Of a stretch of DNA of 64,000 nt, positions 13,101 to 43,100 are shown one piece after another (position 1 is the first letter of the stretch; every line of letters begins with the position of its first letter). The DNA is from Methanosarcinales archaeon. GTDB lineage: Bacteria > Omnitrophota > Gorgyraeia > Duberdicusellales > 4484-171. The stretch spans positions 2,401-66,400 of the forward strand of contig JAIWAR010000003.1 in NCBI GenBank assembly GCA_048634245.1, given 5' to 3'. Under the pieces are notes generated by a model. The model saw only the letters and a program-made list of their open reading frames with translations. It did no database searches and had not been told where the DNA came from. The position numbers and the translations under genes are program-made.

Positions 13101-16100
13101 CCGGAGAAGAGTCGGCTCATGTAGGTGTAGGGCCATTCATGGAATCATGGGATGACGGGATAGCCATAGGATTAATGTGCTTATGGATGGTTGCGGATAC
13201 AGGAAAGAGCCTTACAGAGTACAGAGAAGAAATAGAAGCAATAATTGGCAAAAAATTCTATTACAAGAGAGGAAAAGTAGATTTAACAGAATCTTTGAAG
13301 AAAAAGACTGAAAACTTTATAGATAATGTAAGAGAAGAGCAGAAAAAGAAAATTCCTTTAGACAAGATGACAGTAATTAAAGCTTTAAAGAATCTCGGGC
13401 TAACACAAAAAACGGTATCAGTAATAACATCAGACGGATTAAAAGTAGTATTTGAGAGTGGAGATTGGTTTTGCATAAGGTTATCAGGTACACAGTTTGT
13501 GTCCAGGTTGTATACGGAAGTAACTGTGATAGAAAGAGAAAAAGACTTAGTATCTCTTGGAAATCAATTGTTTGAAGCTATTGATCGGCAGGGCGTACAA
13601 CGGGTAACTGACGGCGGGTTGTTAGAAGTAAATAAAGAGAAAAGACAAATCCGTTCTACCTACAATGAAGCAATGAAAGCGCCGTTCAAAAAGGCTGAAA
13701 TTATAGGCAGGGCTGACATTGTTGTTGGTATACCCTTCTTTGATGAAGTAAAGACAGTAGGTAATGTATTTAAGAAAGTAATGGAGGACCTGAAAAAACA
13801 TCACCATGGTAAGAAGTCTGTGATAATTTGCGCCGGCGGCCCTGCAGGCAAGCCTGCTCAGGAGGCTTTAGAAATTCTTGAAGGTATTACTCTGCCTTCT
13901 AATATAAAAAGGATAGCCTTTATTCTGCCTATCAGAGGTAAGGGCATAGGAGGAATGAGGCCGGTTATGGAATTAGCTGATATGTTGGGTGCTGAGGCCT
14001 GCACTTTCATTGACGCTGATGAGCGCAAGGTAACTGATGAATGGGTTTCTCTTATGGTTAATCCCATATTAAATCAGGGATATGATTATATTGCTTCTCG
14101 TTATGCCCGTTATAAACACGCCGCCACAATTACCAACCATTTAGCCTATCCTTTGATTGCAGCAATTTATGGAAAAGCAGTACGCCAGCCTATTGGCGGA
14201 GAATTTGCCTTTTCAAAAAGATTGATGAAATTATATCTCAAAAACCCAAAGGTCTGGTTTACCAATGTGGGTACCTACGGAGTAGATAACTGGCTTACTA
14301 CAAAAGCTATTGTTAATAAGATGAAAATGGGCGAGGTTGATTTAGGCGTTAAAGCGCATAGTTTTAGTGCTTTTCCTAAGCGGAAGGGGATGTTTATCCA
14401 GGTAACTGGTGAAGTATTTAGCCAGGTAAGGGAAAATGAGCGTTTCTGGGAAAAAGTAGAAAAGGTTAAGCCTATTGATATTGTCGGTCTATTGAGGGGG
14501 GAAACACCTGAATCTGTACCTCAGGACTACAGGGAGTGGCTTGGCGAGTTTAAGGATAATTTCGAGAAAAATCTTCCTGCATACAAAAAAATATTGCCGC
14601 AAGACGTAGTTAACAAATTAAAAATCCTGGCCTATACTAAAGATGAAGAGTTTGAACTTAAAGCTTCAGCCTGGGCAAAGATTGTTTATATTTTTCTTCT
14701 CCATTATAACTTTAATGCGGAGCCTATAGGGGAAGAATTCTGGGATGCGCTGGTTGCCATATGGCAGGCGCGGGTAGGTTCTTTCATCAGAGAGACTGAA
14801 AAAATGAGCCACGAGGAAGCAGGAAAGGTTATCTATAAACAACTTGAAGAGTTTATAGAAGCAAGAAGAGACTTTGTTGATAAATGGAGAGAGAAAGAAA
14901 ATCTTGATGGTGGAGTATCTTCAGAGTCAGATAGTGTTGAATTCGAAAGAGATTTTATATCTTTGAAAAGGAATTTTATAAAAAAATCGCAAAAGAAAAT
15001 TAAAACAGTAAAGAAGGAATTAGTAACTTATAAGCAAAAATCAAAAGAAACAGGTATTGGAGTAATGTGGTTCTCGACAAATTACGAATTTTACAAAAAA
15101 CACTTTAAAGAAGTGTCTTCTGAATTGAAAATGATTAAGAAAAGAGAGTTACCCGATCATGGGAAGAGAGTATATTTAATTGCTAAAGAATTTATAGAGG
15201 AGTTAGGGCTAAATCCTTTATCAGTAAAGGAGTTAACAGAATTTTTAAATAATCATGCTCAAAGACTTGAGCTTAATTTAGCAGAGATAGAGAGTTTCCC
15301 TACAATGTTAAAGCTATCTATACTTGAGGTATTTATTACCAAGTGCGATGCTCAAATTATCAAAGATATGGCAATCAGTGAAGCTGACAGCTTATTTAAA
15401 AATACAATCGATAATACGAAATTTATAAACATCATTGATTTCCCTTCTTTTATAGGTGATATGAGTATAATTGACAGTGTTTTGAAACAAGATTCGACTT
15501 ATTTGTATATGGATGCTGAAACACAGGATAATTATAGAAGGACTGTTTACGATATATCTCAAAAAGCAAAGGTTTCTGAACAAACGGTTTCCCGTAAAGC
15601 GTTAGAATTGTCTTTGTCGTATAAAATAAGAGCGCCGGATAAAATTGATACATATTATTATGATTTTAGACCGGGGTATATCGGATATTACCTTATAGAT
15701 AAAGGGAGGGAAGAATTAGAAACTTTATTAAGCATTACTCCTACTATAATCGAATCGGCTAAAAATTGGATTTATGAACATCGCAGCTATCTTTATTTAG
15801 GGGCTATTTTTAGTATAGCAATTCTTGAAACAGCGGCAGTATTATTTTATTTGGCGCTACTCGATATTCACCCTGTTACGATAGCCTTGGTATCTTTGGC
15901 ATTTTTCTTTGTTTTCAATGATGTAGCCGCGCATCTTATGAATAATTTAATGAATAAATTTGCAAAAGTTCGAAAACTTCCCAAGATGGACTTCTGGAAT
16001 GGCGTGCCGGAAGAATACAAGACATTAATAATTTTTAATGTTCTTCTAATAAGTAAGCAAAATGCTCAGGAGTGTATTACGGCTGTTGAAAAGACATTTT

Positions 16101-19100
16101 TGGATAATGTTGATAGATATATATCTTTAGGGATTTTAGGAGACTTTCCCGAATCCGCTGAGGCGCATTTATCGGTAGAAAATAAAGAAATAATGGCTTA
16201 TGTTGAAGAAAGTATAAGCTCATTGAATGATAAATATCAATCCAAACTAGGGTATTCTCCTTTTTATCTGTTTATTCGTAAAAGAACATGGAATGAAAAA
16301 TTCAAAAAATGGATGGGTTGGGAAAGAAAAAGGGGAGGGCTTATAGAGTTGAATCGCTGGCTTAGGAATCCTCTTGCGAAAACTAATTTTATAAAGATTA
16401 TCGGAGACAAGAAAACTATAAGAGGGGCCAAATATGTAATTACTTTGGATGAGGATATTGAGGTGCCAAAAACAATAGCTAAAAGATTCGTTGAGATTAT
16501 GGCCCATCCTTTAAATAGGCCGGTGATTGACCCCGATAAAAATATCGTAGCGCAAGGATATGGGATGGTATATCCATGGTTGGGCATAATACCGGCTTTT
16601 CGTGAACATAAATCTTCTAGGACATTATATAGACAAGTTGACCTATGGCAGAGAGGACAAAGGGATATAGGAGTATATAAGTATGCTTTTCCTGATATCC
16701 ACCAGTATATTTTTGATGAGGGAACATTTACAGGAAAAGGGATTTATGATGTAGAGGTATTTCAGTCTATCTTGGATAATCGGTTTCCGGCTGACCGTCT
16801 TTTAAGCCACGATCAAATCGAAAGTTTTTATATGAGGTCTGCTTTGGCAACAGATATGGTATTGTTAGAGGGAACTGTAGGGGATGCTTTAAATGACTAT
16901 AAACGCAAAGAGCGCTGGACAAGGGGTGATTGGCAGGATGTCTGTTGGATGTTTGGAAAAATCCCTGCGAGAATTGGGGACAAATTGTTTGCAGAATATA
17001 ACCCGGTATCTTTTTATAACAAATGGAAAATATTCGATAAGGTGCGAAGGACTTTTATCCCTCAGAGCCTCCTGTTTCTTTTAATTTTTGGATGGTTTAC
17101 GCCGCAAATACCGGTTATAGCCTGGACTTTATTTGTTTCTCTCCTTGCTGTATTCAATAGAATACCCATTACCCTTAATCCTATAGCCTGGAAACATTTA
17201 ATCCCAAGAATTTTCTTTTTTGCTGCATTCGATATGAGTTTGCTTGTATACTCTGCATACCAAAATATGAGTGTTATGAAAACTATCTTTGGGAAAAAGC
17301 TGATTACCAATCCTAACTTAGATTGGGTTTCTGCTTCCGAAGCAGGAAAGTACAAAGAAACAAAAACATTGAAGGGGATTTTGAATTGGGCGAAAAGGCC
17401 GCTTATATGCGTATGGTTAATGAATATAGCTTTATATATATTTAATCCTCAGGCCTTGGTTGTTTCCCTTCCTATTTTAATCTTCTGGTCAATCACACCT
17501 TTTATGCTTTATAGATTGAGCGGCCCGGAATTTCCCAGCTGGCTTTCCTTATATAACAAATTATGGTATTTGGGTTGGCTAATGCGGCCCAAATGGGCAG
17601 AGGATAAACTGAAGAGAACATTACTTAGTGCTGACGATATAGAAGACGGTCAAAAAGATTACCTGCGAAATGTAGCATTTGATACCTGGAGTTGGTTTGA
17701 GAGATATGTTAATGAGAAAGAGAATTGGTTGCCGCCGGATAATACAATATATAATTCTGCGGATGAAATTGCCGATTATACTTCACCGACGAGTATTGGG
17801 TTATATCTGGTATCCGTTATTTCTGCTTATGATTTAGGGTTTATTTCTAAAGATGAGGCTGTGAGGCGCATAGAAAATACTTTGAATACAGTGCAGAAGT
17901 TAGAAAAATGGCATGGCCACCTTTTTAATTATTATAATACTCGTACTCTTGTCGTGACGAGACGGTATATTTCTGTAGTAGATAGTGGAAACTTTCTTGC
18001 CAGTTTAATTGTTGTGGTTCAGTTTTTTCCTGAGAATAAAATGTCTAAAATAGCTTCGGCTTTATTAGAAGAAATGAATTTTGCCCCTTTATATGATTTC
18101 GAAAAAGGGTTTTTCTATACCGGATATGACCAAGATGTTCAACATTTAACTAATAGTTACGACACATCAAGGCCTCATTTTACGGCTCTAGAGGAAGAAA
18201 TATCCCAGAAGTTTACTATTTCTTACTATGATTTATTAGCGAGTGAAGCGCGGCTGGGCAGTTTTACAGCTATAGCTAAGGGAGATATACCTGATATTCA
18301 TTGGTTTAACCTAAAAAGGCCTGTTAGTGATGGAGCAAATAAGGTTATCTTAAGCTGGGGTGGAACGGCATTTGAGTTTTTAATGCCGCAACTTTTTATG
18401 AAAGAAAAAGAAATTGCTCCCTACTGGCTGGGATTAAATAACTTAAGAGCAGTTGAGGCTCAGATAGAGTATGCAAAGAAGAATACATTACCTGCTTGGG
18501 GTATTTCCGAGTCCGCTTATCCTGTAGTTACTCCCGGTGGCAGATATTATTATAAAGCCTTTGGAACGCCTAGCCTGGGGATTAAATATCTCACTTCTGA
18601 TGAAAAAGCGAAAAACATAATCGCTCCTTATGCTTCAATATTAGGTGTGGAATTTGCACCTTTGCAAGTTGTCAGCAATCTTATTAATTTAGAAGGGGTA
18701 TCGGCGAGAGGCGAATACGGATTTTATGATTCTGTTGATTTAGATGAAGGTGAGGTGAGTATATCGTATATGTCCCATCATCAGGGGATGAGTTTGATTG
18801 CCTTAAATAATTATTTAAATAAGGGGATTGTAAGAGAAAGATTTCATTCTCATCCTTTAATTAGTAATGTCGAAAATCTATTAGCTGAGGATTCGCTATT
18901 GGAAGATAAATTTAATATGCTTAATTTAAAGAGAAATAGAATATTTGATCAAAATACTTTTCCTTCCGAAGCAAACCTTTTAAGCAATAGAGCCTATTCC
19001 TTATGGGTTACGAATAAGGGCAACGGGGCCAGTAAAATGAGTAAAGAGCTATGCGGAGACCCTAACTTTTTTGTTACAAGGTTTAGAGATGATCCCCTAA

Positions 19101-22100
19101 AAGACTGGGGCAAATATTTTTATATTAAAGATGAAGATAGCCAAAAGGTTTGGTCTTTAGGGTTCGATCCTTTAAAAGAAAACCCCGACAGTTATGAAGT
19201 TATCCATAATTTTCATTCCACGCAGATTATGCATAAAAAGGAAGGAATAAAGATAGAAGCAAAACTTTTTGTGCCCAACGAAGGCAGTTTAGAAATCTGG
19301 CAGATAACTTTGCAGAATGAGGGGAAGGGAGAACGAAATTTAAGCGTTACAAGTTATCTGGAGTGGGTATTAAATAATATAGAGTTGGATATTAATCATC
19401 CTTTTTACAATAGACTATTTATTAAGACTACATATGACCCTTCTTTAAAAGCTATTTTTGCAGAGCATGAAAAAACAAATGTTTTGGGATTTCATTCTGT
19501 AAATATTGAACCTTTTGCTTTCGAAACTTCCCGGCGCGATTTTATCGGTAGAGGAAGAAACCTTGATTCTCCCCAAGCTTTGGCTAAAGGCCTGTCAAAT
19601 TCCCAAGGATATACTTTAGATGCCATAGGTTCTTTAAAGGTGGATATAAAACTCTTAGCGTTTGAGTCTAAGACGATCATTTTTACGATAGGCGCGGTTA
19701 ATGACAGGGAGGAAGCAAAGCATTTAATTACAAAATATACAGATTCCTCAAATGCCTATAAAGCCTTAAGAGATAATTCTTTTGCAATCTGGAAACATCT
19801 TTACAATTTAGGATTAAGTTATAGGGAAAGAGAAATAATAGCGTCTCTTGCTTCAAAATTAATTTATAGAGACGTAAATTTACAAGGTGATATTCAGGCC
19901 AGGATATCTAATCGAGGGGGCCAACCAGAGTTATGGAAGTATGAAATTTCAGGTGATTGGCCGCTTATCTTATTTAAAATTTCCTCGCTTGATAGAATAA
20001 AAGATGCAATGATCCTTATTAAAGGGCAGGGGATATTAAAGGATAAACTCTTTACGACCGAGCTATTGATTTTAAATACTTGTAAAAATGATAAAGAAAG
20101 AAATGAAATTAATTTTATTTTGGATACCTTACTTCCCCAGGGAGTATTTATTTTAAATGAAATAGACATTCCGCAAGAGGATTTATGGCTTCTGGAATCC
20201 CGGGCAAGAGTAGTCATTAATAAATCATTAGAAGCTTCTTTTGAAGGTACTAAAGACGGAGGTAAGGCATCTAGCGGTTATTTTACAGAAGATGGAAAAG
20301 AGTTTATTATCACGACACCTTTGACACCTCGCCCCTGGGCACATATCTTAGCCAATCCTGAATATGGGACTTTAGTTACTAACTCAGGGGCGGGATATTC
20401 CTGGTTTATGAATGCTCAGCAGAATAGGATAACGCCTTTTGCTCCAGACGGCGTAACGGATGATTCCAGAAAGATACTTTACATACGAGATTTAGATACT
20501 AATGAGATTTTTTCTCCCACATATAATCCGTTTAAAGATTCTGACAATCTCTTGATAAGATACGGGTTAGGATATGCTGTTTTTGAGAAAGTCAAAAACA
20601 ATATATCTATTCAGCTGACAGTCTTTGTGCCGCAGGATGAGCCTCTTGAGATTTGGATTTTGAAGTTGAAAAATTTAGGGAAAGAGAGAAAGAGGCTGGC
20701 CGTTACTAATTATTTTGAGCTGGTTTTAGGAGATACTCCTGAGAATACCAGATATAAAGTTTTATCTTATTATGATAAGACTTTGGAGGCGTTGCTGTTT
20801 AGCAACAAAACAGGTAATTTTAAAGATGCGATAGCATTTTCTTCCCTAAATTTAAATCCGGTTAGTTTTGAGACTGATAGGCAGAGATTTATAGGAGTAA
20901 ATAGGGATTTAAATAATCCCGAAAGTATTGAAAAGGGGGAGTTATCCGGATCTCAGGGGATTAATGTCGAGAGTATCGCTAGTCTTTTGGGAGAAATAGA
21001 AATAGAACCTTTTGAGGAAAAGGTAGTTGTATTTACCTTAGGCGAAGCGCAAAGTTTTGATGAGGCAGCAGCACTTATAGGAAAATATAAAGATACGGTT
21101 AAGGCTGAGGAATCTTTAGAAAATACAAAGTCTTACTGGTTGAATCTTCTTGAATCATTCAAAGTTGATACTCCGGATAGAGAATTAAATATTATGGTGA
21201 ATTACTGGCTGAAGTATCAATCAATTGCATGCCATTTATGGGCACGAACCGGATATTATCAGTCAGGGGGAGCAATAGGGTTTAGGGACCAGCTACAAAC
21301 CAGTTTGATTGGTCTTTATACTGATTCTGAAATAACCCGAAGACAAATAATTCTACATAGCGCGCATCAGTTTGAAGAAGGGGATGTTCAGCACTGGTGG
21401 CATCCGGAGAATAATTTGGGCGCACGCACCCTTATTTCCGACAATCTACTTTGGCTGGCTTATGTCTTATATCATTACACAACAGCCACGGGTGATTGGT
21501 CTATTTTGGATATTGAAGTTCCTTATTTAAAAGGAAGATTATTGGAAGAAGGAAAAGAAGGTGATGTATTTATCCCTGAAATCTCTGATAGAAAGGATAC
21601 GATTTACAAACATGCCTTAAAGGCTATTGATTATGCACTTAATAGATTTGGGCCGCATGGTTTACCTTTAATCGGCGCGGGCGACTGGAATGATGGTTTT
21701 AGTAATGTTGGGATGAAAGGACAAGGTGAAAGCGTCTGGCTTGCCTTTTTCTTATATGATGTATTAGTAAAATTTTCTAAAATAGTTGAGGCAATGGAAG
21801 GAAAAGAAAGAGAAGAATATTATTTAATGAGAGCCGAATCACTCAGAAAGGCAGTTGAGGAATATTGTTGGGATGGAGATTGGTACGTAAGAATTTTTGA
21901 TGATGATGGAAATGTTATTGGCAGTAAGGAAAGTGATGAGTGGAAAATAGATTTGATCCCTCAAGCGTGGGGAGTGATTTCAGGAGCTGCGGATAAAAAG
22001 AGGGTAATAAAAGCGATGGAATCAGTGGGGAAATATCTTATTAAGGGCAATTTAGTACTTTTAAGCACTCCGCCTTTTGAGTATACAAATTTGAATCCGG

Positions 22101-25100
22101 GAAGGATTAAAGAATATCCTTCCGGTGTGCGTGAGAATGGAGGGCAATATACACATGCAGCTACCTGGTTAGTGTTAGCGTTGTCTCTTTTAGGAGAGAA
22201 AGAGAGAGCTTGTCAAACATTTAAAGATTTGCTACCGATAACCCATGATCCAGATATATACGAAGCTGAGCCGTATATACTTGCCGCAGATGTGTATGGG
22301 GTAGGGCATTTAGAAGGAAAAGCAGGTTGGACGTGGTATACCGGGGCTGCAGCCTGGTTGTTTAGAGCAGCAGTTGAAGGAATGTTGGGAATAAGATTAG
22401 AGAATGGAGAAATATCACTGAGTGGTTCTTTACCAAAACAGTTATCTCCTACTAAAGTGTTTCGAAAGGGAGAAAAAGACATTGTAAAAAAAGACGGGGG
22501 TAATAAATTTGATAAGGACATTTTTATTAAAGATATAAATGGGAAAAATTTAAAACTCATTGGGTATGTTTTTAGAGATTCGAGGGATATTTTTGACGGC
22601 GGCAGGACAGATGGAGGAAAGGATATTAATCTTATCATAGAATTTCTGATTATTTTAGAAAGTAAGCTCACTGATTCTAACGGGAATGTCCAGCAAGCTG
22701 TTGTTAGGGCCTTAGCTAGCGTATATCCGGAACTAATCCAACAAGAGAAAATGTCTTTATCCGCTTTAGAAAGCAAGCTTACTGATGCTGATCGGTATGT
22801 CCAGCAAGCTGTTGTTAGGGCCTTAGCTAGCGTATATCCGGAACTAATTCAACAAGAGAAAATGTCTTTATCCGCCTTAGAAAGTAAACTCACTGATTCT
22901 AACTGGGGTGTCCGGCAAGCTGCTGTTAAGGCTTTAGCCAGCATATATCCGAAATTAATCCAACAGGGGAAAACCCCTGATTTATCCGCCTTAGAAAGCA
23001 AGCTTACTGATTCTAACTGGGAGGTCCAGCAAGCTGCTGTTGAGGCCTTAGCCAGTGTATATCCGGAACTAATCCAACAAGGAAAAATGTCTTTATCCGC
23101 CTTAGAAAGTAAACTTACTGATGTTGACTGGCGTGTTCAGCAAACTGCTGTTAAGGCTTTAGCCAGCATATATCCGAAATTAATCCAACAGGGAAAAACC
23201 CCTGATTTATCCGCCTTAGAAAGTAAACTTACTGATGTTGACTGGCGTGTTCAGCAACCTGCTGTTGAGGCCTTAACCAGCATATACCCGGAACTAATCC
23301 AACAAGGGAAAATGTCTTTATCCGCCTTAGAAAGCAAGTTTATTGATTCTAACTGGAATATCCAGCAACCTGCTGTTAAGGCCTTAACTAGTATATATTC
23401 GAAATTAATCCAACAGGGAAAAACCCCTGATTTATCCGCCTTAAAAAACAAGCTTACCGATGCTGACTGGCGTGTCCAGCAAGCTGCTGTTGAGGCCTTA
23501 GCCAGCATATACCCGGAACTAATTCGTCAAGGGGAAATGAGTGATGAAGATTATGAAAAGTATGAATTGTGGAACGAGGAGAAAATGCCTTATCAGGAGG
23601 AAGTGATTAATGCATACCTTGCTGCGTCTGATCCTCGGATATTCATAACTTCTTTAAAGCAGAAAGCAGAGATAGCAGTAAACAAAGGGTTTGATTATAA
23701 AAATTCAAAGCAGTGCTGGTTTGCCTTTGTGGGAGTAAGGATAAAAGGGATAGACATAAATTGGGAGGAATTTACCAAGAGGATGGAAACTTTGGTAAGA
23801 TTTGACCAGAAGCACCCAGGCTATTTTAACTATCTTTTTACCAAAGTAAGAGGATTAAATATACTTGAAGTTAGCGCTGAAGGCATAAGGCAGACAGATG
23901 TAAGCAGTGTGGATAAAGAGGTTTTAACCAATAATGTTGAGCAATTGACACAGATAAAGAAAAAGATAGACAGCTTAACCTGGCTTAATGAATCTTTCCC
24001 GAAGGATAAGAAATTGAATCTACGCAACTTCTACTACCAGATAAAGAAGCAGGAGGTTTTAAAGCAGGGACAAATAAGGCAAAACGACAGATTCAGGGTT
24101 GAATTTCCTTCCCAAGAAGAAATGGAAGCTGAGATTAAGAATAACAAAAAACAGTTTTACCGTATAGCTTTCGAGTTAACCTACGCCAGGCTGGGTAACA
24201 GGCAAGAGCGGGGAAAATACCTTAAGTTGATAAGGGATTTAATAGTCAGCGATATACTTGAAGATGAAACTTTGCGAGTCCAGATGCATTCCTCCGACTT
24301 AGAAACAAAAATATCCGCCTTTAAAAACTTTTATGAGGACTACAAGAATCACCTTCCTGACTCTTCAGGAATAAAGGTAGGAAGCATAAAGGGATTAAGG
24401 GAGATGTTTGAAAATCTTTCCCAAAAGGTATATGAAGAATTAGCTAAGGTAACAGTAGTAAAAAAACAAGGTAAGGAAACCTACCACTTAATCCCCGCAG
24501 GATTTTTGGCCGTATTTAGAGGTAGAGCCGGTATACTTGACTGTTCTTTTGATGAAGATAAAGGCACTCCTTACACTCGGGCAATGCATGAGGATACTCT
24601 TTACTATTTTGTGTATAAAGGCAGAGAATTAAAGGGCTATATGGGGTTATGCTTGGGTGAAGCCAAAGATGGAAGGAAAATATTAACCGTAGACACCATG
24701 AATTCTCCTTCTTTAGACGGCAAGGAATTGTTAACCAATCTATTCAAGGAGTTAGCTGAAATAGGCGGGCAATTAGGCTGCTCCGGTATTGCTTTACCTG
24801 TTGTCTTAGAACCTTCGTTTAATTTTGATAATGAAGATACGATTTCGACGATGACGATTTATCAAAGAGCTAACAGAATAACTCTTAGGCCGGTTCACAA
24901 GGAGAGCTGGCAGAAATTTACTGATATGTTTGGTGAAGATACCTATAACAGCATAGAAAGCGGCTCCTTCAAATTACTGGATATCGTTATACCGGCTGTT
25001 GCAAGAAAAAGTAGTCAGCGAAAAGACCAAGAGAAAAATAGTAAGGTTAAGTCTGATTTAGGTGATGATGAGCTTGATGGTGGTGGTAAAGAAGAGATTG

Positions 25101-34100: not shown

Positions 34101-37100
34101 TGTATTTGCTGTATGTTCACTTAATGGAAAATAAGTTATCTTTAAATTTCAATACTTTTCTGATAGGTATACTTGTTGCCATCCCATATCTTTTTGGGAT
34201 TATTCCTTATATTTCGATGAAAATAAATGAAAAGAGGGTTGACGAAGAAAACAGAGAAGATTTCAGACAGTCGTTGGTTGTTAAAAAGGTACACGAAAAA
34301 ATTTTAAAGAATGGAGCACAGTTAAATACGCCAATACAGGGAGTGCAAACAGTAGAAAAGAATATTGCGGGGGGATGGGGTTTACATGAAGTAGAGTCAC
34401 AATTCGACCAGGTGTCGTGGGGAAATGTTAAAGGAGAAATTGAAGGGACAATTTATGGTATTTTTGGAGAGAAGTTTTCCGGGGATGTAAATGCGGATTT
34501 CAGGTCGAAAACTACACCAATACTGGATGATGAGGCAATATTTTTTAAACTTAGGAAAGATGATCAAGTGATAAGGATTATTTCTCCCAGTGTCGGGATG
34601 ATAGAAGCAGTAGTAAGAGAATATGTGAATAATTTGGCAGATAAATATCCCGAGGGCTCTCATACGAATATAGCAATAAAGGCAATGGCAGACGGCCCTT
34701 ATCCTATTACGAGGAATTTAAATCAGTTAAATCCTGCTTATATCCAGGATACTTTAAAATTGCTCAGTAAATCAGCTGATGACGAGCTTATTTCAGGGCG
34801 TTTTGTCGGGGTGGAAGCCCTTCCTTCTTCAGAAAAAAGGAATATATTCTGGGGTATCAATATCTTGCTTGAAAACCAAGAAGAGGGATTGGTTAATCAT
34901 CCTTTGTTTCCGGTTAATACGCTCCGGTCAATTTTTGAAAGACTTACGCCTTTATTTCCTAAGGGGAGTGAAGACGCAGAGTTAGACGCCCCGTTTGAAC
35001 GATTGCTGTCCGTAGGGAAATCAGAACATGACTATGATAAAGAACAAAGCGGTGTAGAAGGCATAGAGGAAAATAGTGACAGAGACAAGAGTGATAAAGA
35101 TGGAGGTGAATTCAATTGTGCAGAATTTAGTGCGATGGCAAAGATACTTAAAGAACAAGGAGTAAGGGGTGAATTTCATTTGAAGATTATTTTAAGATAT
35201 AAGACTAAAGAAGAGCTGGAAGATAGGGTCGCAGAAATTCTAAAAGTAATAGAAGTGATAGAAAAGTCAACCAGTATACCAGATTTTAGAATGTCTATGT
35301 CAAGCCGAGTCGCCATCCTCAAAACTTATCTTAAAAATAATAAAAAAGAAATATTCCCAGAAACCATTGTTTCCGGGCCGGTTATGGATAATTTCATAGA
35401 TGTTCTGAAGGGAAGAAATGAGTATCAGCAAATGAAAACAATTTCTGATGGCAGAGAAAGGACTTTGGAATCAGATGTGGGGATGTTTACTGTAAGTGAT
35501 TATAATGCTTTACAGAAGGAAGCTGAGACAAAAATTCTTCGTATATTAGAGAGAAGAGGGCTACGAATATTTAGGGAAATTGATTCTTCAAAGCAGCCAA
35601 GCGGCATTATGGATTGGCATAGAAAGTACATTTATGAATTCCTTGATAACTTTAATTTTCACGGCGGAATAAGGCTATTTTTAACGGGGGGACAATTTAG
35701 TGATTGTATTCTTAAAGCTTTCAGTGCCGCTCTTTTCTATGCCCTATATAAAAAGAATACGCCTATTCATATTATTTTAGTTGAAGAAGCTATAGCCGAT
35801 GGCGATAATCCCGGAATTAGAGAGGATTGTTATATAGACCTTATTAAGCAATTAAAGCTTAATTCAATTATTTTTGTTGATGGAGCAGTTGAGAGAGAAA
35901 ACAGGTTATATCCTGATAAGAATTTTGCTGTTGTAGTTTCTTTTTATACCACAGTGGATGAGTTTGAGAAATATTATCCGAACCAGCTTTGTTCATTGGA
36001 GGCGGATAATTATCAGATTATTAGGGATTTACTGGAGGAAAAGGAAATCCCTCAGAAAAAATCTGACGAAGTAATTGCTCATTTGGTAAGAATTACAGAA
36101 ACTACAGGGATAAGTCAGCTTCAGGCCATTACCTTTTTAGTTAAATTAATTACTTTCAAGCCGGTCTCAAGAGATATTAGCAGCTATAATGATTTAATCT
36201 TTGCGATAGAGCGAGCCGGAGAAGTTGTTGTTGGTGCTGTTGAAACCGTAGATAGTTGGTATAGACTGCAGGCGATTACTGCTTTAGATGAATTCTTTTC
36301 CTATGATTGGGTGTTAAAGCATATTAAAGGTTTGGATGATTTGCTTTCTGTGATAAAAGAAGTTAGAGATACGACTAAGGGGTCAGGCGAGTTTCAATTT
36401 GAAGCTATCGCTGTTTTAGGTAAATTAATTACTGTCGGGCCTAGTGCAAAAGACAGTAAAAACCTTGATGATCTGCTTTTTAGAATAAAGAGTATAGGAG
36501 ATGCGGTTGACAATGCTACTAGATCCGCGGGTGAATTTCAAGCAGAAGCTATTATTATTCTGTTTGAATTTATTAGTTCAGAATCTGTTTTGCAATGCGT
36601 TGGAAATTTTAGTGAATTGCTTTTTGCTTTGGACCGTATCGAAATATATATAGGCTATAAACAAGATTCGCAAACAACAAAAGCATTAGAAGATATAACT
36701 GTAAGTAATGTTTTTAATCCTGAAAAGTTAGAACATACAAGCAATTTCAGGCCGGTTGACTGCAAACAAGGAATAACTAATGCTCGTATTAACAATGACG
36801 GTGGTATAGAAAAGGCGGTAATAAAAGGCTATGAAAATATAGAAGAAAAAATCAAACCGCTTGTGCTTGTTATTCTGGATGGTTGGGGGTGTTCAAAGGA
36901 GCCTTTCGGTAACGCGATTGCGCAAGCCCAAACGCCTAATTACGATAGATTAGTAGAAAGCTGTCCTTCGACTATTCTTAAGGCCTCGGGAGAGGCAGTA
37001 GGTTTGCCTGCCGGTGTGATGGGGAATTCTGAAGTGGGCCATTTGAATATTGGCGCAGGATTAATAGTTCCTCAGGATGTATCAATAATTAATGCTGCCA

Positions 37101-40100
37101 TTGAGGACAATACTTTCTTCTCCAATAGTGTTTTAAAAGATATTACTATACATCTTAAGGCTAACCCCGGAAGCAGCCTTCATATTATGGGATTAATATC
37201 CGATGCGGTTATTCATTCCAGCATGGATCATCTTCTTGCTTTATTAACATTCGCTAAGAATGAAGGATTAGAGAGGGTATATATTGATGCTATTACTGAC
37301 GGAAGGGATTCTGACCGGGAAAGCAGTCTGCAGTGGATAGAAAATCTTCAGGAAGGGGCGAATAGAATCGGCACAGGAAAGATAGCAACGGGTATAGGGA
37401 GGTCTCGTCCTATGGATAGGGATAATAATTGGGGGGTGATTAAACCGGCATATAATTTGTACACTCAGGGAATAGCTGTTAACCGGGAAAAAGACGCCTT
37501 AACTGCTTTAAGAAAATCTCATGACAGAGGAATAACCGATGAATTCATAGAACCGACAGTAATAATTGGTGAAAATGGTGAGCCTCTGGCAATAATTAAG
37601 GATAATGATGTAGTTATATTTTTTAATTTCCGTGCTGACCGGGCCAGGCAGATAACCCGGGCTTTTATGGACAAAGATTTTAAAGGATTCAAACGTGAAA
37701 TTCAGCCTAAAGTTAAATGGGTTTGTATGACTGAGTATGATGAGACATTTTATCAGTTTGATAATCTTTCGGTGATGTCCCCGCCTCAAAAACTTGCTAA
37801 TACTTTGGCTGAGGTCTTGTCGAAAAATGGGCGTAGGCAATTGCATATTGCCGAAACACAAAAATTCGCGCATGTTACTTTCTTTTTCAACGGAAGGGAA
37901 GAAAAGCCTTTTAGCGGCGAAGAACGAATTCTTATCTCTTCCCTCAAAGACATCACCTTTGATAAAGCACCGGCAATGTCTGCCTATGAAGTTACAGAGG
38001 AGTTGATTAAAGAAATGCGAAATTATGATGTTTCCATAGTTAATATAGCCAATGCTGATATGGTAGGCCATACCGGAGTTTTGGAAGCAACTGTTACAGC
38101 AGTAGAGGTAGTGGATGAATGTGTAGGAAGGATAGTGGATGAAGTTGAAAAACAGGGCGGCATAGCTCTTATTATCGCTGACCACGGTAATGCTGAAGCT
38201 ATGGTTACGAAAAAAGGTAAGTCTCTTACTAAACATACTACAAATCCTGTGCCTTTTATTTTGGTGGATTCGCAGGGAACTTTAGGCAAAGTAGAGTTAA
38301 GAGAGGGAGCTTTGTGCGATGTTACGCCGACTATGTTAAAGATTTTAGGCATAGACCAGCCAAAAGAAATGACTGGCAGGAGTCTCATAATAAAAGCTGA
38401 CGGGGGCTGGGAGGTGAAGATTTTTGAGTCTGATGAAGAGCGTGATTGGGTAGCACTTAAAAAGTCGGATATCTCTAAGAGATTAATAGGAGAAGCCGAG
38501 GATTATGGTGATGTGCCAGACAATTTTATGTTTTTTATTCTTGTAGGAGACAGCAAAGCACATGGAGGAGCAGTAATTAATATAGAACATAGGCTGGGTT
38601 TTGAGGTTAAGTATTTTGATATTTTTCCACAAAGACAAGGTTTAGGAAGAGTACTCTGGAAACATATAGCAAAGGAGTTGCTTAAGGAGAGGTTTGAATA
38701 TGGGTATGTTACTCCCGAAGATAATAATGCAAGAAAGTTTTGGTTAAAACAAAAATTTTACGAAGTTAAGGGTAGAAGCTCGCTATATATTGATAAGGCA
38801 GGTTTAGAATATATAGCCTTCGGAAAAGGCCTTTTAGATAATGATTCTGCCGTATCTAAGGAAGTGACTTGTCGTGACGGAGGCACAAAAGAAGAGATTA
38901 TATTACTTTCTTCAGCAGAGACGGCTAATTTAAGGATTGTAGAAAAAGAGGAATTGATTCCGGATGCTATGGCCTTTATGGGGAAAGACTTTCGCGGGCA
39001 AAAGGGCTCTCTGGCCGTATTAAAGGAGTTGGTAAAAAAGGGCCTTGTGGCATATAACGGCCCTAAAGGGAAGGGTATTCAGTTAACTGAAGATGCCAAA
39101 GAGCTTTTAGATGCGGGTAAAATAGGAGAAAAAGTAGAGAAACCGGAAAAGAAAAGAATAATAAAGAAGGATATTTTTCTCTCTACAGCAGAATGGATTG
39201 TGCTTAATAAGGTGAGATTGGGATTAGGTTGTACTTTGAATGATTTTACCGGAGGTTATCAAGATGGAGCAGAACTACTCATAGAGAAAGGCCTCTTAGA
39301 GATTAGAGACGATGGTGTTTTAAAAACTACAGAATTTTATAAAAAATTATCTCGAGAAGGAAGAATTAAAAAGGAAACAGAAAAAAGCTCTAGGCCAGCC
39401 TGGACTATAAAGAGAGAAACTGCCGGGGTTAAGGTGCCGAGTAAAAGTATTTCTAAAAGTGAACTTTTTGGGGAATTTGTGAGGAGGGTAATAGAAAACA
39501 TCAACGGAGGGGAAAAGAGAGAAGGAATTTTTAAAGGAATTGAGAGAAAGGATTTAGGATATACCTCAATAAGTGGTTTCCGTAAGGCAAAGATAAGAGT
39601 CGATGCTTTTTTAGACGATATTATATTTGATTCCTATAATGATGAGCCGGTTTTAGCGGAAAGCATTAACCCTAAAAATATTATCCCTGTAAAGAAAGCT
39701 AAAGCGTTTAATGAGTTAAGGAATAAGGTAGTGCAGGAAACACTAGATGGAATGAATGGTTCTGAAGTTAGCTTAAGCGGAATATTTTGTATCTTTACGC
39801 TAACTTTATGGCGCAATATTTCTCGCAAACGAAAAGGAGGCAGTTTTGATATTGCTGTAGCCCCTTTAATCACAAAGGAAATCGTAGAACAACTGGGGTA
39901 TTCAGCAAAAATAATGCAGAAGAAGGGGCGTTTATATATTGTAGTAATTGACAAGAATAAAGGGAAAAAATATAGATTTGCCTTAAAAGAGACATTTGGG
40001 ATGAACGAGTTTCAAAGGGCGAGTTATATATCAGACGTCAAACACCGGCTATCTCTGCCTGAGAATGATTGCGGGAAAGACGGCGGCAAAGAATCGTTTG

Positions 40101-43100
40101 ACGCACAGGAAGAGTGGCTATCTTCTCTGCTAGAGAAGGTAAAAAACGGCAAAGCAGTTATTGCCGGCCTGGGAGCGACTTCCTTGCCGGATAAAGAGCA
40201 AGGTAAACCCATAGGTTGGGCATTGGCCTTGTTTTATCGTTTAGCCGGCAAACAACATTTAATTATCGGTTCATCTTCTAGCATTGGGAAAGCGCTTGAT
40301 GCGAAGAAATGGATTGAAGGTAATTTTAAAGAGCAAATAGAGAAATCTATAGATACAATGATGAATGAAGATGCGGCAAAAGCAGCGAATATAGTGGTGA
40401 TAGGCGTGCCCGCCCAATATACTCTTTCGACTTTAATTGAATTAAAGAATAGCGGCTTAAAAAATAAATTAATATGGGTATGCGGAGTGCCGATGCGAGA
40501 GCCGGAAGACTGGATAACCAGCAGAAGAAAGGGGAAAAAGGTGAAATTTAGATTTTATGAGAAGCCCTCTGAATATCTTGTTGAATATTTGCGGGGCAAT
40601 GAAGAATATATATCAAAATGCTCTGAGTGTGAATCTATGGGGGAAGTAATTGCGGTTATTATGGAAGGTACAGGCAACGTGGTAGTAAACGCCGGCAATA
40701 ATATACCGGCATTTAAAATGGGAAGAAAAGATATTCTTCCTTACGAAGTGGAAGTATGTACTGATAATGCTGCGGCCGGGCAAATAGTTTCTCGGTTACT
40801 TAAGATGGTAGATGAGAATTTAGAGCCGGTTATACATAAATTAAGCTATAGTTACCGGATGGAGTCAAGAACTCCCTGGTATGCGATGTATCCTGTGCTT
40901 TTGAAATTAACTATTGAGCAGTTTGAAAAGTTAAGAAAAAAAATTGGATTAGTACATTTTGAGCGCTCAAGAAGAGTTACTTTTAGAAGAACAAGAGGAT
41001 TGCTTAAAGAGTTGGTTGGTTCTGAAGTTCAATCTGCTAAAAGCCCGAAGCGGTTTGAGGATGGGGGAAGAATCAGCATTAAAAATAATCAAGCCTGGCA
41101 GCAATTAAAGGACGGAGACCTCTCCGTGGTTGGATGGCACCGTTCGCTGCTAGGTCTGTTTTCTTTTGCGGGTAAACAACTACCCGAATATTCAGCACTT
41201 TTATTCTACACTCCGCCGAAAAAAGAATTAATAGCTATTGTAGCTTTGCTGTCCTTACCAATTATTTTTGAATATTTCCTAGCCTTCTTACCTATATATG
41301 GCTTCCCTTTGCAAATTATAGTTCTTGTGGGACTTTTTAATTCAGCACCTAAAGAAGGCAAACCCAAGAATAATGACACAAAAGGGTGGAAAGAAGCGAT
41401 GGGAGAATTAAGAAAAGATTTTATACAACGAGAAGAAAATTTAAAAGTTGTAATGGAAACTGAATTTAATAAGAAAATAGATGATTTGAGGAAAGATTTT
41501 GAAGAAAAGACCGCAATAGATTCAGGTATTAGGAATGAGATGAATTATGCAGATTCTAGTAAAAATGAAAATTATGAAACTGCAACTATAGAAGTGCTTA
41601 TAAAAAAGGCAGTAATAACAAATGGTGTAAGTTATTTTGTTAATAATGTAAATAATTTTATAGATTTATTTATAGATATTATTGCAGCGAGAAAGAACTT
41701 TGCTAAAGACGAACATATTTTAGGCGCGCTTAATAATAATATAAGCGAGAGGATAGAGGGTAGATTACGTAAGCCATATAATTGTTTTCTCGATTTTTTA
41801 GAAAGTCAATTTCTTGTAGATAAAATTATTAAGATGTTAAGTAAATGCAACAAGGTTAGAATAGAAGAAGTCAACGGTTTTAAATCAGCAATTGTAGAAT
41901 TAGGAGCAACCAGCAAAGCCTATAATAAAATTAATAAAAGAAGAGGCATAAAGAGAAGAATGTATCTGTATAAGATGAAATTGAAAAAGGAAAATTTAGA
42001 AAATCTTCCTGCCGGCTCAATGTTAATTTTGGAAGACAAGAAAAGCAATCGTTTTCACGCAGTTCGTTATGTAGAATTTAAGAATAATAAAGTTGAAGTT
42101 ATCGATAGTGACCCTGTGAGCCATAAACAAGGACCAAAAGAAATAGAAATGAAGGATATTTTAACCGACGAAAACGGAAAAATCATTGTTGTTACTTTTG
42201 AAGAATTAAGTAAAGAAGACATTGATGGCCTTGAAAATTTTGAAGGAGACGGTATTTGGGTTTATGGAATTGCTTCCAGTGGTGCAGCTAGTGAAGGGTC
42301 AACCGGTAGTGGAGCAGCTGGCAGTAACGCTGATAGCTCTTCAGGAAGTGCGGATGGCGGAACTTTGGACAGCGGTGGAATTGGAAGCGGCCTTCCTCCC
42401 AGTATTACAGGAAAAAGCGTAAGTAGTTTATTGGTGAATAGTAATATTTTTGACGGAGGATGCGTTACGAATAATCTTAATAATATGGCGATGTCGCAAA
42501 ATACCTTTTTGTCATTGTCCTTTTCCGACTTGAACGGAGGATTGCATAGAAATAATGGTTTAGTCCTTGCGTTCATACCTGTTGGTATTCCGGCCAGCGG
42601 TGGAAGAATTTTAGCTAGAAATAGTGCTAATGTTGATGGCGGTAAGCGCAAAGGCGGCCTAATAGATCAAAAAAGAGCGGGTAATATTAAAGAGGATGAG
42701 TCGGAAGCCCAAGTTTTGCTTACAGAGTTAATAATAGAGTGTCGAAACAGAAGAATTATTTTGCCGGAAGAAAGAGAAGAAGTTATGGCTAAATTGAAAG
42801 ATTCAGAGCTTATAGGACAGGTTTGTGACTTCCAGAGACATTTTAAAGAAGCCGGGTTTCCTGAACAACTTGCTTCGGTATTTAGTTTAGGATTAGTATT
42901 TACTCCTAGTTTTAAGAGTTGGATATCTCATTTAAATGAAATGGATGAAAAGCATAAAGAGGATAGAGATCTAGATAAACTTAAGAATGAGTATTTTACT
43001 AAAAAGAACCGGATTATTAGCATTGTTGTCGAGAAACTAAGAATATTTCTTGATGAACTTATTCCTATTACCGATATGGTAAAGGCTGAAGCAATCATCA

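Follow-up and report, generated by a model that had tools for sequence, protein, structure and literature searches.

The window analysed here is a 64,000-nucleotide stretch of contig JAIWAR010000003.1 (assembly GCA_048634245.1), and its content is one giant open reading frame (ORF) and nothing else. It is probably, though not securely, an internal 64-kb piece of a giant Omnitrophota gene of the 'multi-enzyme' type, made of approximately 40 cassettes whose recognizable members are complete copies of proteins that also exist alone, and in which even numbers of membrane spans would tether the chain to the cytoplasmic face. The encoded polypeptide would be a string of protein-sized cassettes joined via short polar linkers bearing the tripeptide Asp-Gly-Gly (DGG). 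Its four hydrophobic clusters would be the native membrane parts of five embedded cassettes, and not a separate design feature. Besides a Cgs-like module, the five would include an approximately 270-amino-acid (aa) protein with a central hairpin, an LspA-like unit, and two cassettes that open with a hairpin-like anchor. Each would have an even number of spans, so that the chain enters the membrane and returns to its original side. The sugar-phosphate and cofactor-dependent enzymes would thereby all be kept on the cytoplasmic face, and the membrane segments would pin the enzyme string, or, should it be cut at DGG, the resulting pieces, to the inner surface of the cytoplasmic membrane.

Frame +2 (nucleotides (nt) 2-64000) has no stop in 21,333 codons, and each of the other five frames has between 656 and 2,343 stops. 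The ORF is open at both window ends and thus represents an internal part of a longer gene. Within the window, the ORF listing has no ORF closed at both ends that is longer than 242 aa. The coding strand is purine-rich along the whole window, and the gene has 37% G+C. An earlier note on this DNA had described a single giant protein, and the uninterrupted frame bears this out at the reading-frame level. All features given below lie on the forward (+) strand.

Membrane clusters and their cassettes

Hydrophobic windows were defined as 19 residues with a Kyte-Doolittle (KD) value of at least 1.8, and a Hessa-type insertion free-energy scan was also run. KD windows are found in cluster 1 (aa 5264-5838, nt 15791-17515), cluster 2 (aa 8671-9073, nt 26012-27220), cluster 3 (aa 11347-11404, nt 34040-34213), and cluster 4 (aa 13743-13779, nt 41228-41338), which are the four sites where the earlier note had placed clusters of hydrophobic helices. 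The frame contains 20 such windows, compared to 11.6 ± 3.0 in shuffled sequences. Hydrophobicity alone is weak evidence in so long a protein, because this count is only about twice that expected by chance. Fifteen of the 20 windows have a neighbour within 60 aa, while 300 shuffles average 0.65 and never exceed 6, and chance thus falls far short of producing this clustering. A bare hydrophobicity count was rejected as a significance test in favour of this clustering test, since at loose thresholds it is uninformative (30 observed and 29 expected).

The best reading gives 6, 2, 6, 2, and 2 helices for clusters 1, 2a, 2b, 3, and 4, all of them even. The total of 18 transmembrane (TM) helices comprises approximately 370 of the 21,333 residues (1.7%). 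The short connecting loops have 0-1 Lys or Arg residues (K/R) and the outer flanks 2-5, which is a positive-inside pattern. Every TM cluster is wholly within one DGG-delimited cassette. As the earlier note had stated, the clusters are spaced by thousands of residues of soluble enzyme domains; Pfam and PDB matches identify PGM/PMM, GH94, HEAT, nucleotidyltransferase (NTase), glucose-6-phosphate isomerase (PGI), GAPDH, radical SAM, methyltransferase, cofactor-independent phosphoglycerate mutase (iPGM), and GH15 domains there. Its helix counts stand in part: the 'at least 8' of cluster 1 become six TM helices and one interface helix, cluster 2 has eight (2 + 6), and the two of cluster 3 are retained.

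Cluster 1 belongs to a Cgs-like module (nt 14906-22501) that lies between two DGGs and has a third DGG in an internal linker at aa 6752. The module is identified by phmmer, by an Omnitrophota homologue, and by Pfam PF10091, PF06165 (twice), and PF17167. Residues 4901-7500 match the A. tumefaciens Cgs cryo-EM structures 8rf9 and 8rf0 (phmmer E=0) over Cgs residues 268-2767, and the other PDB matches are 8wy1 and cellobiose phosphorylases. A stand-alone protein of 2,678 aa from a Candidatus Omnitrophota metagenome-assembled genome (MAG; protein P0089) aligns to the module over its residues 82-2642 in a single high-scoring segment pair of 52% identity, and its gene has ordinary small genes around it. 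By this alignment, the module appears to be the whole of that stand-alone protein. The best stand-alone homologues come from Candidatus Omnitrophota/Omnitrophica with 50-53% identity, and those of other phyla reach at most 37%.

The first two helices of cluster 1, TM1 and TM2 (aa 5264-5287 and 5291-5313, nt 15791-15940), are separated by a 3-residue loop and align to Cgs residues ~393-457. They correspond to helices 128-153 and 158-187 (model numbering) of the AlphaFold2 (AF2) model, with a predicted local confidence (pLDDT) of ~90; their flanks have 2 and 5 K/R, and the loop has none. The GT84 glycosyltransferase domain lies between TM2 and TM3 (nt 15959-17041). In comparison with 8rf9 it keeps the motifs 'TLDEDIEV', 'LSHDQ', and 'RWTRGDWQ', and the primer Tyr in 'GKGIYDV'; the UDP-binding Asp residues, the catalytic Asp, and the RW motif of the Cgs GT84 domain are named in the structural study (PMC10901819). 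In the structure comparison, the AF2 model agrees with Cgs and, at a greater distance, with BcsA and with hyaluronan synthase. TM3 and TM4 (aa 5686-5701 and 5703-5720), an interface helix (aa ~5727-5769), and TM5 and TM6 (aa 5800-5815 and 5818-5838) follow at nt 17057-17515, as assigned by family hydropathy and AF2, whose helices there are 553-566, 572-585, 594-636, 657-681, and 683-706 (model numbering).

The family-mean hydropathy of 39 homologues of the module has exactly six conserved hydrophobic segments. The AlphaFold model of aa 5134-5900 has a pLDDT of 81.6 and a predicted TM-score (pTM) of 0.83, and it superposes on 8rf9, 8rf0, and 8rfe with a TM-score of 0.77 and a root-mean-square deviation of ~4 Å. 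The three short outer loops of the cluster have no K/R, and the flanks have 2-5. Six TM helices are present in the solved Cgs, where 76 residues of helix and loop separate TM4 from TM5, and its soluble domains, including GH94, are all cytoplasmic (PMC10901819). The Cgs alignment, the hydropathy of the homologues, the AF2 superposition, and the published structure together indicate that cluster 1 is a six-span unit with an interface helix and predicted cytoplasmic flanks on both sides.

Cluster 2 is divided between two neighbouring cassettes. The first (nt 25076-26551, from the DGG at aa 8359 to the DGG at aa 8848) holds, at aa ~8567-8840 (nt 25700-26521), a full copy of an uncharacterised family of ~270 aa with the motifs 'DAIVLETG', 'RSAISAKKIEEF', 'YGAGH', and 'YLKHKxLRD'. 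An exhaustive HMMER search yields 86 representatives of this family, most of them 230-300 aa long and without a Pfam match, and its members align to the giant from their first residues to the last conserved motif. A metagenome scan with the family alignment finds seven short contigs with stand-alone copies, and contigs L004, L005, L007, and L009 carry stand-alone ORFs of 268-278 aa. A first metagenome scan gave no match. The word-indexed protein search likewise had no match for cluster 2, and the same type of search also missed the iPGM elsewhere in the window; its negatives are not taken to show absence. Scans of GTDB representative genomes with the cluster 2 region and with the TM and glycosyltransferase region of the Cgs-like module found no relative; their patterns were rare-residue words and not conserved motifs. 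The sequence of the window itself was likewise absent from the public collections that were searched.

Cluster 2a (nt 26012-26176) is a two-helix hairpin (aa 8671-8700 and 8706-8725) in the middle of the ~270-aa fold, as judged from the family alignment and AF2. The stand-alone members carry the hairpin at the matching position, and they lack an N-terminal signal sequence. The globular part of the AF2 model has a pLDDT of 85-97, and the hairpin helices (129-157 and 167-182, model numbering) have 60-75. No significant PDB fold match was found for the model. The SWSGS loop of the hairpin contains no K/R, and the flank after it contains 3. In the modelled structure, cluster 2a must be a hairpin with both ends on one membrane side, because its two helices interrupt one globular fold whose halves must share a side.

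The second cassette (nt 26543-27286, from the DGG at aa 8848 to the DGG at aa 9093) is LspA-like by Pfam and BLASTP and contains cluster 2b, with six hydrophobic helices at aa 8886-9073 (nt 26657-27220). Pfam PF01252 (Peptidase_A8) matches it with E=9.9e-5 and 23.0 bits, which is under the cut-off of 25, and only over profile positions 60-141; the NCBIfam scores are far below cut-off. By BLASTP, 73 aa of the unit are 44% identical to a bona fide LspA (P0081), whose 'GGVIDW' and 'MNIAD' line up with the unit's catalytic-Asp motifs 'GGSIDW' and 'MNIAD'. The gap between the putative TM1 and TM2 is only ~20 residues, and the AF2 model is unreliable there (pLDDT <50). The unit has four core helices and one extra helix on each side, with even parity either way. 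A tally of K/R by hand gives 15 inside and 3 outside for an N-in/C-in arrangement, and this charge distribution favours that orientation.

Cluster 3 comprises two helices (aa 11347-11370 and 11384-11404), found by the KD scan in the cassette from the DGG at aa 11323 to the DGG at aa 11700 (nt 33968-35107). It begins 24 residues past the first of these DGGs and is followed by ~300 aa without a recognised domain. The helices are 21-24 residues long, with KD values of 2.26 and 2.28 and approximate insertion free energies of -0.7 and 1.1 kcal/mol; the flanks have 2 and 4 K/R, and the 13-residue loop has 1. Cluster 4, also from the KD scan, lies in the cassette from the DGG at aa 13687 to the DGG at aa 14118 (nt 41060-42361). 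The earlier note had counted 1-2 helices here, and the count keeps that range: the cluster is a hydrophobic run of 37 residues interrupted by 'LPIYGFP', which may form a tight hairpin or a single long helix. Its halves have KD values of 2.37 and 2.08, its flanks have 2 and 4 K/R, and the second half has only 13 residues. Neither cluster has a Pfam match, and the word-indexed search of aa 11323-13830, which also missed the iPGM domain there, returned no homologues. Both clusters would insert in the membrane, and of all parts of the model these two are the least secure. A further hydrophobic segment at aa 20236-20254 (nt 60707-60763, KD 1.88) is isolated and has no partner; it may be a chance occurrence, a buried helix, or a single span.

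The Asp-Gly-Gly joint

The tripeptide DGG occurs in frame 44 times (nt 248-61300), compared to 6.2 times expected by composition and 9.3 by a first-order model, an approximately 7-fold excess. Its z-score of 15.2 is the highest of any tripeptide, the next one being 6.4. One DGG (aa 2381) is an intrinsic motif of the CofD family, which leaves 43 of junction type. The 3,576 Pfam-matched residues contain no DGG, while 7.4 are expected (P ~3e-4), and neighbouring sites are about a protein's length apart (median 399 aa). In the range that holds the membrane clusters (nt 14906-42353), the first bases of the DGGs are at nt 14906, 20255, 22493, 22595, 22610, 25076, 26543, 27278, 27887, 29702, 30908, 30923, 33590, 33968, 35099, 36797, 38399, 38876, 40079, 41060, and 42353. 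All four Gly codons are used at both glycine positions, and the signal is thus in the peptide. No residue reaches 25% at any of positions -12 to -1 before the Asp, and the flanks are merely polar. The Asp codon is GAC in 59% of the sites compared to 22% overall, and GGC is also over-used, which is a GC-rich codon preference.

Two other explanations of the motif were rejected. A translated Shine-Dalgarno sequence (GGAGG) or internal start does not account for it: approximately 10 of the 44 sites have GGAGG, all Gly codons are used, the distance to the next Met is random, and a Shine-Dalgarno sequence with ATG is not enriched. Nor is DGG a general trait of the phylum or of Cgs-like proteins, as 119 stand-alone Cgs-like proteins have 70 DGGs with 78 expected.

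The PGM/PMM, GH94, NTase, PGI, GAPDH, methyltransferase, and iPGM modules are bracketed by DGG within 3-40 residues. The distances before and after the enzyme are 21 and 27 residues for PGM/PMM, 16 and 14 for iPGM (3 past the end of the PDB alignment), 38 and 8 for the methyltransferase, and 21 and 34 for the GH94 unit. Where solved homologues exist, they match over the whole protein, with residues 4-511 of 511 for iPGM and 5-451 of 455 for PGM/PMM. In the Cgs-like module, the DGG at nt 20255-20263 (aa 6752-6754) is in a variable linker, 4 residues before the GH94 phosphorylase unit, where the stand-alone homologues have longer and unrelated linkers. These homologues have no DGG at the equivalent linker and tail.

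The modules were assigned from sequence matches to Pfam and PDB across the entire frame. Two CofD/YvcK-like domains come first (best Pfam-matched stretches aa 1657-1791 and 2804-2939). They are followed by the PGM/PMM module, a complete enzyme at nt 12047-13528 (aa 4016-4509) between the DGGs at aa 3992 and 4537, with Pfam PGM_PMM_I-IV. HEAT/Adaptin repeats (Pfam) are located after PGM/PMM and before the ~270-aa unit, and the NTase after the LspA-like unit and before PGI. The soluble modules between clusters 2 and 3 (nt 27887-33943) are a PGI-like module (aa 9296-9901, PDB match E=1.9e-10), a GAPDH catalytic domain (aa 10112-10274, PDB match E~1e-16), a radical SAM domain (aa 10882-11063, Pfam), and an S-adenosylmethionine methyltransferase (aa 11238-11314, Pfam). 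The complete iPGM is at nt 36854-38392 (aa 12285-12797), where PDB 1ejj/1o99 align over residues 4-208 and 219-511 and Pfam finds iPGM_N and Metalloenzyme. A stretch with a weak match to F420/NADP-oxidoreductases lies between iPGM and the GH15 glucoamylase-type domain. The latter, at nt 46091-47386 (aa 15364-15795), begins 23 residues past the DGG at aa 15338 and is identified by Pfam PF00723 (E=2e-59) and by PDB glucoamylases. An AAA_5 ATPase follows GH15.

Paralogous cassettes are found within the frame at nt 3389-5677 and 6839-9121, 22655-23092 and 23102-23542, 3002-3490 and 14519-14998, and 49004-49441 and 55025-55489. The identities are 53-60% for the CofD-like units, 74% for the HEAT unit, and 70% and 56% for two unnamed units. 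Cassettes have thus been duplicated inside the giant gene.

A metagenome contig of 14.9 kb (ENA ERZ25746724 NODE_1729, here L001) is a relative of the window with 88-93% nt identity, and it matches window positions 3524-10167, 12026-13595, 16342-22545, and 38412-38839. Cassettes of the window recur in it in another order, and the breaks in the order fall at DGG sites. In L001, the PGM/PMM cassette (window aa 3992-4537) stands between the cassettes ending at the DGG at aa 2266 and starting at the DGG at aa 2281, where the window has only a 12-residue spacer between the two DGGs and no PGM/PMM cassette. After its Cgs cassette, L001 has a relative of the window cassette at aa 12800-12959, while the window has three closely spaced DGGs there. 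L001 covers eight of the window DGGs and keeps every one of them, even though the ±20 residues around them are only 64% identical with insertions and deletions; whole blocks are 81-91% identical. Five of six L001 DGG sites have synonymous changes relative to the window.

The conservation of DGG amid divergent flanks, the synonymous changes, and the breakpoints on DGG point to a selected joint motif, and the cassettes that it bounds appear to be the units of rearrangement. Since L001 was assembled from short reads at low coverage, part of its mosaic order may be an assembly effect, but the DGG conservation is independent of this. Its order suggests cassette shuffling between related giant genes, and an assembly chimera is less likely. 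The L001 frame is open except for one TAA (L001 7431-7433), where the window has TTA (Leu) at ~4255-4257. This TAA, which at a coverage of 4.6x may be either a real polymorphism or an error, would divide the giant frame of L001 in two, each part a very large gene. Another contig of 6.5 kb (L003; GCA_028706895.1, JAQTVG010000061.1) has one end-to-end open frame (2,169 aa) with PGM/PMM, a hairpin-family module, and one DGG, and is probably a fragment of another giant gene.

It is conceivable, although the opposite is easier to believe, that the giant product is cleaved at DGG into approximately 40 ordinary proteins. The TM clusters would then belong to five separate membrane proteins with no multi-cluster topology in the mature state, which is compatible with tethering. 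The motif is the top tripeptide by far, with its 7-fold excess; it occurs in linkers only, lies 3-8 residues past the C-terminal end and 13-20 residues ahead of the N-terminal start of complete enzymes, is absent at equivalent positions of stand-alone homologues, and is invariant in the relative through synonymous changes despite diverging flanks. A cut at the DGGs at aa 11323, 13687, or 8848 would produce an N-terminus with a basic stretch and then a hydrophobic helix, like an ordinary signal-anchor. A cut at aa 6752 would part the synthase from the phosphorylase. C39 peptidases, which are double-glycine peptidases, cut after Gly-Gly. Such domains are reported near the N-termini of full-length giants, whose cleavage points are stated as unknown (10.1101/2023.11.21.568195).

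Several observations stand against cleavage. The only protease-like unit in the window is the LspA-like one; SecA-DEAD, C39, and S8 domains are not found within it at Pfam E<=1e-3, and the gene ends are outside it. The residues upstream of DGG do not have the conserved hydrophobic pattern of canonical double-glycine leaders. The other multi-module proteins with the hairpin family, among them the complete proteins P0007 and P0008 of 2,390 and 1,165 aa, have no excess of DGG, and the motif may be lineage-specific. A bacterial polyprotein of approximately 40 complete proteins, five of them membrane proteins, with the linker DGG as processing signal and with the same DGG-bounded cassettes inserted, deleted, and reordered between related giants, is put forward only as a tentative proposal.

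Sidedness of the chain

The TM clusters most likely tether the chain to the cytoplasmic face, and the chain is not woven across the membrane. The earlier note had suggested that enzyme modules are displayed on alternating sides of the membrane, with glycolytic domains inside and GH94 and GH15 outside. This part of it is not supported, because the helix counts are even and the neighbouring modules have cytoplasmic substrates. The modules between the clusters need UDP-glucose, NTP, NAD, S-adenosylmethionine (with a reducing system), ATP, or phosphorylated intermediates, all of which are cytoplasmic. GH94 enzymes are phosphorylases and not secreted hydrolases. The K/R pattern and the cytoplasmic GH94 of the solved Cgs agree with this. 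Even parity in the LspA-like unit and in cluster 4 is predicted, as is the cytoplasmic location of the enzymes.

A polypeptide in which all helices insert and whose enzyme blocks weave to alternating sides is unlikely. The clusters are real and the soluble stretches between them are long. Cluster 4 may be a single span, and it and the isolated segment at aa 20236-20254 could then bound an external region with GH15. West-Roberts et al. obtained mostly extracellular predictions for the domains of such giant proteins, some of which they call unlikely (10.1101/2023.11.21.568195). Against weaving, GH94 belongs to the Cgs module, whose solved homologue is cytoplasmic except for its six helices; clusters 1, 2a, and 3 have even counts, as 2b probably does; and the modules that directly flank clusters 1-3 need UDP-glucose, NTP, NAD, S-adenosylmethionine, and phosphosugars. 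GH15 alone could be external, and only provided that both cluster 4 and the segment at aa 20236 cross the membrane once.

Tethering to the cytoplasmic face is itself opposed by several points. The six-span N-in/C-in arrangement of the LspA-like unit places its catalytic-Asp loop in the cytoplasm, the reverse of canonical LspA, and the AF2 prediction for this region is unreliable. For clusters 3 and 4 there are neither homologues nor structural support, and with the thresholds applied a protein of this length has isolated hydrophobic windows by chance. With a second half of 13 residues, cluster 4 could be a single span, which together with aa 20236-20254 would place ~6,450 residues, including GH15, outside. 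Both preprints on giant proteins report that TMHMM and DeepTMHMM disagree on such proteins (10.1101/2023.11.21.568195; 10.64898/2026.06.07.730766). The assignment to Omnitrophota rests on module-level similarity, with no marker gene in the window and with the gene ends and the neighbour genes outside it.

That the hydrophobic stretches belong to soluble domains, as buried cores or as amphipathic helices, is highly improbable. Some hydrophobic windows in the frame are clearly domain cores, such as 'GPGSFYTSLL', present in each CofD-like domain, and the 'GGRFSGFSAV' of the PGI-like module, and the number of such windows is just some two times that of chance, as given above. In contrast, the clustered segments are all outside recognised soluble domains, are closely paired with K/R-rich outer flanks, and are grouped far beyond chance. 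Clusters 1 and 2 are homologous to membrane proteins, namely the Cgs TM domain, a signal-peptidase-II relative, and a family-conserved hairpin, and the earlier reading of these segments as genuine TM helices is upheld to that extent.

That the giant frame is an artefact of chimeric assembly or of stops lost by error, with clusters that belong to ordinary separate genes, is barely credible: L001 has the same modules in another order and one in-frame TAA where the window has TTA, but sequencing errors break frames and do not yield 64 kb without a stop, L001 itself is open in one frame over several module joints with shared DGG linkers, no start-codon or Shine-Dalgarno signal follows the joints, and giant ORFs of like composition are independently reported from curated and long-read genomes.

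Comparison with known systems

The Cgs-like module resembles Cgs in its domain order (N-terminal domain, TM1-2, GT84, TM3-6, cyclase-like, GH94). It also shares the GT84 catalytic motifs, the primer tyrosine, the 2 + 4 helices around the glycosyltransferase domain, and the long interface stretch between TM4 and TM5. In contrast to Cgs, a protein of ~2,800 aa, it is embedded in a far longer frame, and unlike stand-alone Cgs-like proteins it has DGG in the linker before GH94 and in the C-terminal tail. The LspA-like unit resembles LspA (Peptidase A8) in its TM3-TM4 region with both catalytic aspartates and in a TM1 motif of the 'DQxSK' type. It differs in its sub-cut-off Pfam score, a missing or very short periplasmic beta-cradle, an extra helix on each side, and a charge-favoured orientation that is the opposite.

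Double-glycine and polyprotein systems, such as the bacteriocin leaders cut by C39, polyubiquitin, and the viral LxGG sites, share with the window complete units in one frame and short linkers with an invariant Gly-Gly. As in C39 sites, Gly-Gly is present in the 43 junction-type DGGs, all of which are outside Pfam-matched domains. The window sites differ from double-glycine leaders in that they have no hydrophobic/acidic pattern (-4, -7, -8, -12) and an invariant Asp at -3. To our knowledge, no bacterial polyprotein of this size has been described. The conserved tripeptide at module boundaries makes the question of cleavage, which is open in both preprints, directly testable.

The closest known objects are the giant proteins of Omnitrophota. 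West-Roberts et al. (2023) describe such giants ('Archaeovorins'), in which TM regions are numerous and some domains are homologous to PGI, PGM/PMM, and further glycolytic enzymes; they caution that overlooked TM helices may have made the predicted extracellular location wrong, and they suspect cleavage at points that are unknown (10.1101/2023.11.21.568195). SecA-DEAD-like and C39/S8 domains are reported near the termini of giants (10.1101/2023.11.21.568195). A 2026 preprint applies DeepTMHMM to 916 long Omnitrophota proteins, in which TM segments comprise ~2% of residues (10.64898/2026.06.07.730766). One class that it defines, termed 'multi-enzyme metabolic', contains sugar-metabolism enzymes, methyltransferase, signal-peptidase-II, F420-oxidoreductase, and HEAT/Adaptin, and the preprint reads the TM-only class as membrane-anchored cytoplasmic proteins (10.64898/2026.06.07.730766).

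The window is like these giants in that its ORF exceeds 10,000 codons and TM helices represent 1.7% of its residues, compared to ~2%. It presents the same puzzle over the side faced by the glycolytic domains, and the closest stand-alone homologues of its Cgs module come from Omnitrophota MAGs. With PGM/PMM, radical SAM, methyltransferase, HEAT/Adaptin, signal peptidase II as well as F420-oxidoreductase, it appears, as far as sequence can tell, to match the multi-enzyme metabolic class feature by feature, and this kind of object is already described. The window differs from the published giants in its DGG joints and DGG cassette shuffling, and in having no SecA-DEAD, C39, or S8 domain inside it, the gene ends being missing. 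Neither giant-protein preprint mentions DGG joints or cassette shuffling at DGG, and the literature searched has nothing relevant on Omnitrophota DGG or giant polyproteins; the DGG joint motif thus appears to be undescribed. It would show that these genes evolve by cassette shuffling, and it offers a rational cut point for dividing giants into structure-prediction units. The TM clusters, as native parts of recognizable embedded proteins, one of which has an experimentally solved topology, argue for tethering to the cytoplasmic face. Giants with several TM clusters and the puzzle of their localisation are already in the literature, and the module-level TM assignment and the DGG-bounded cassette build are new.

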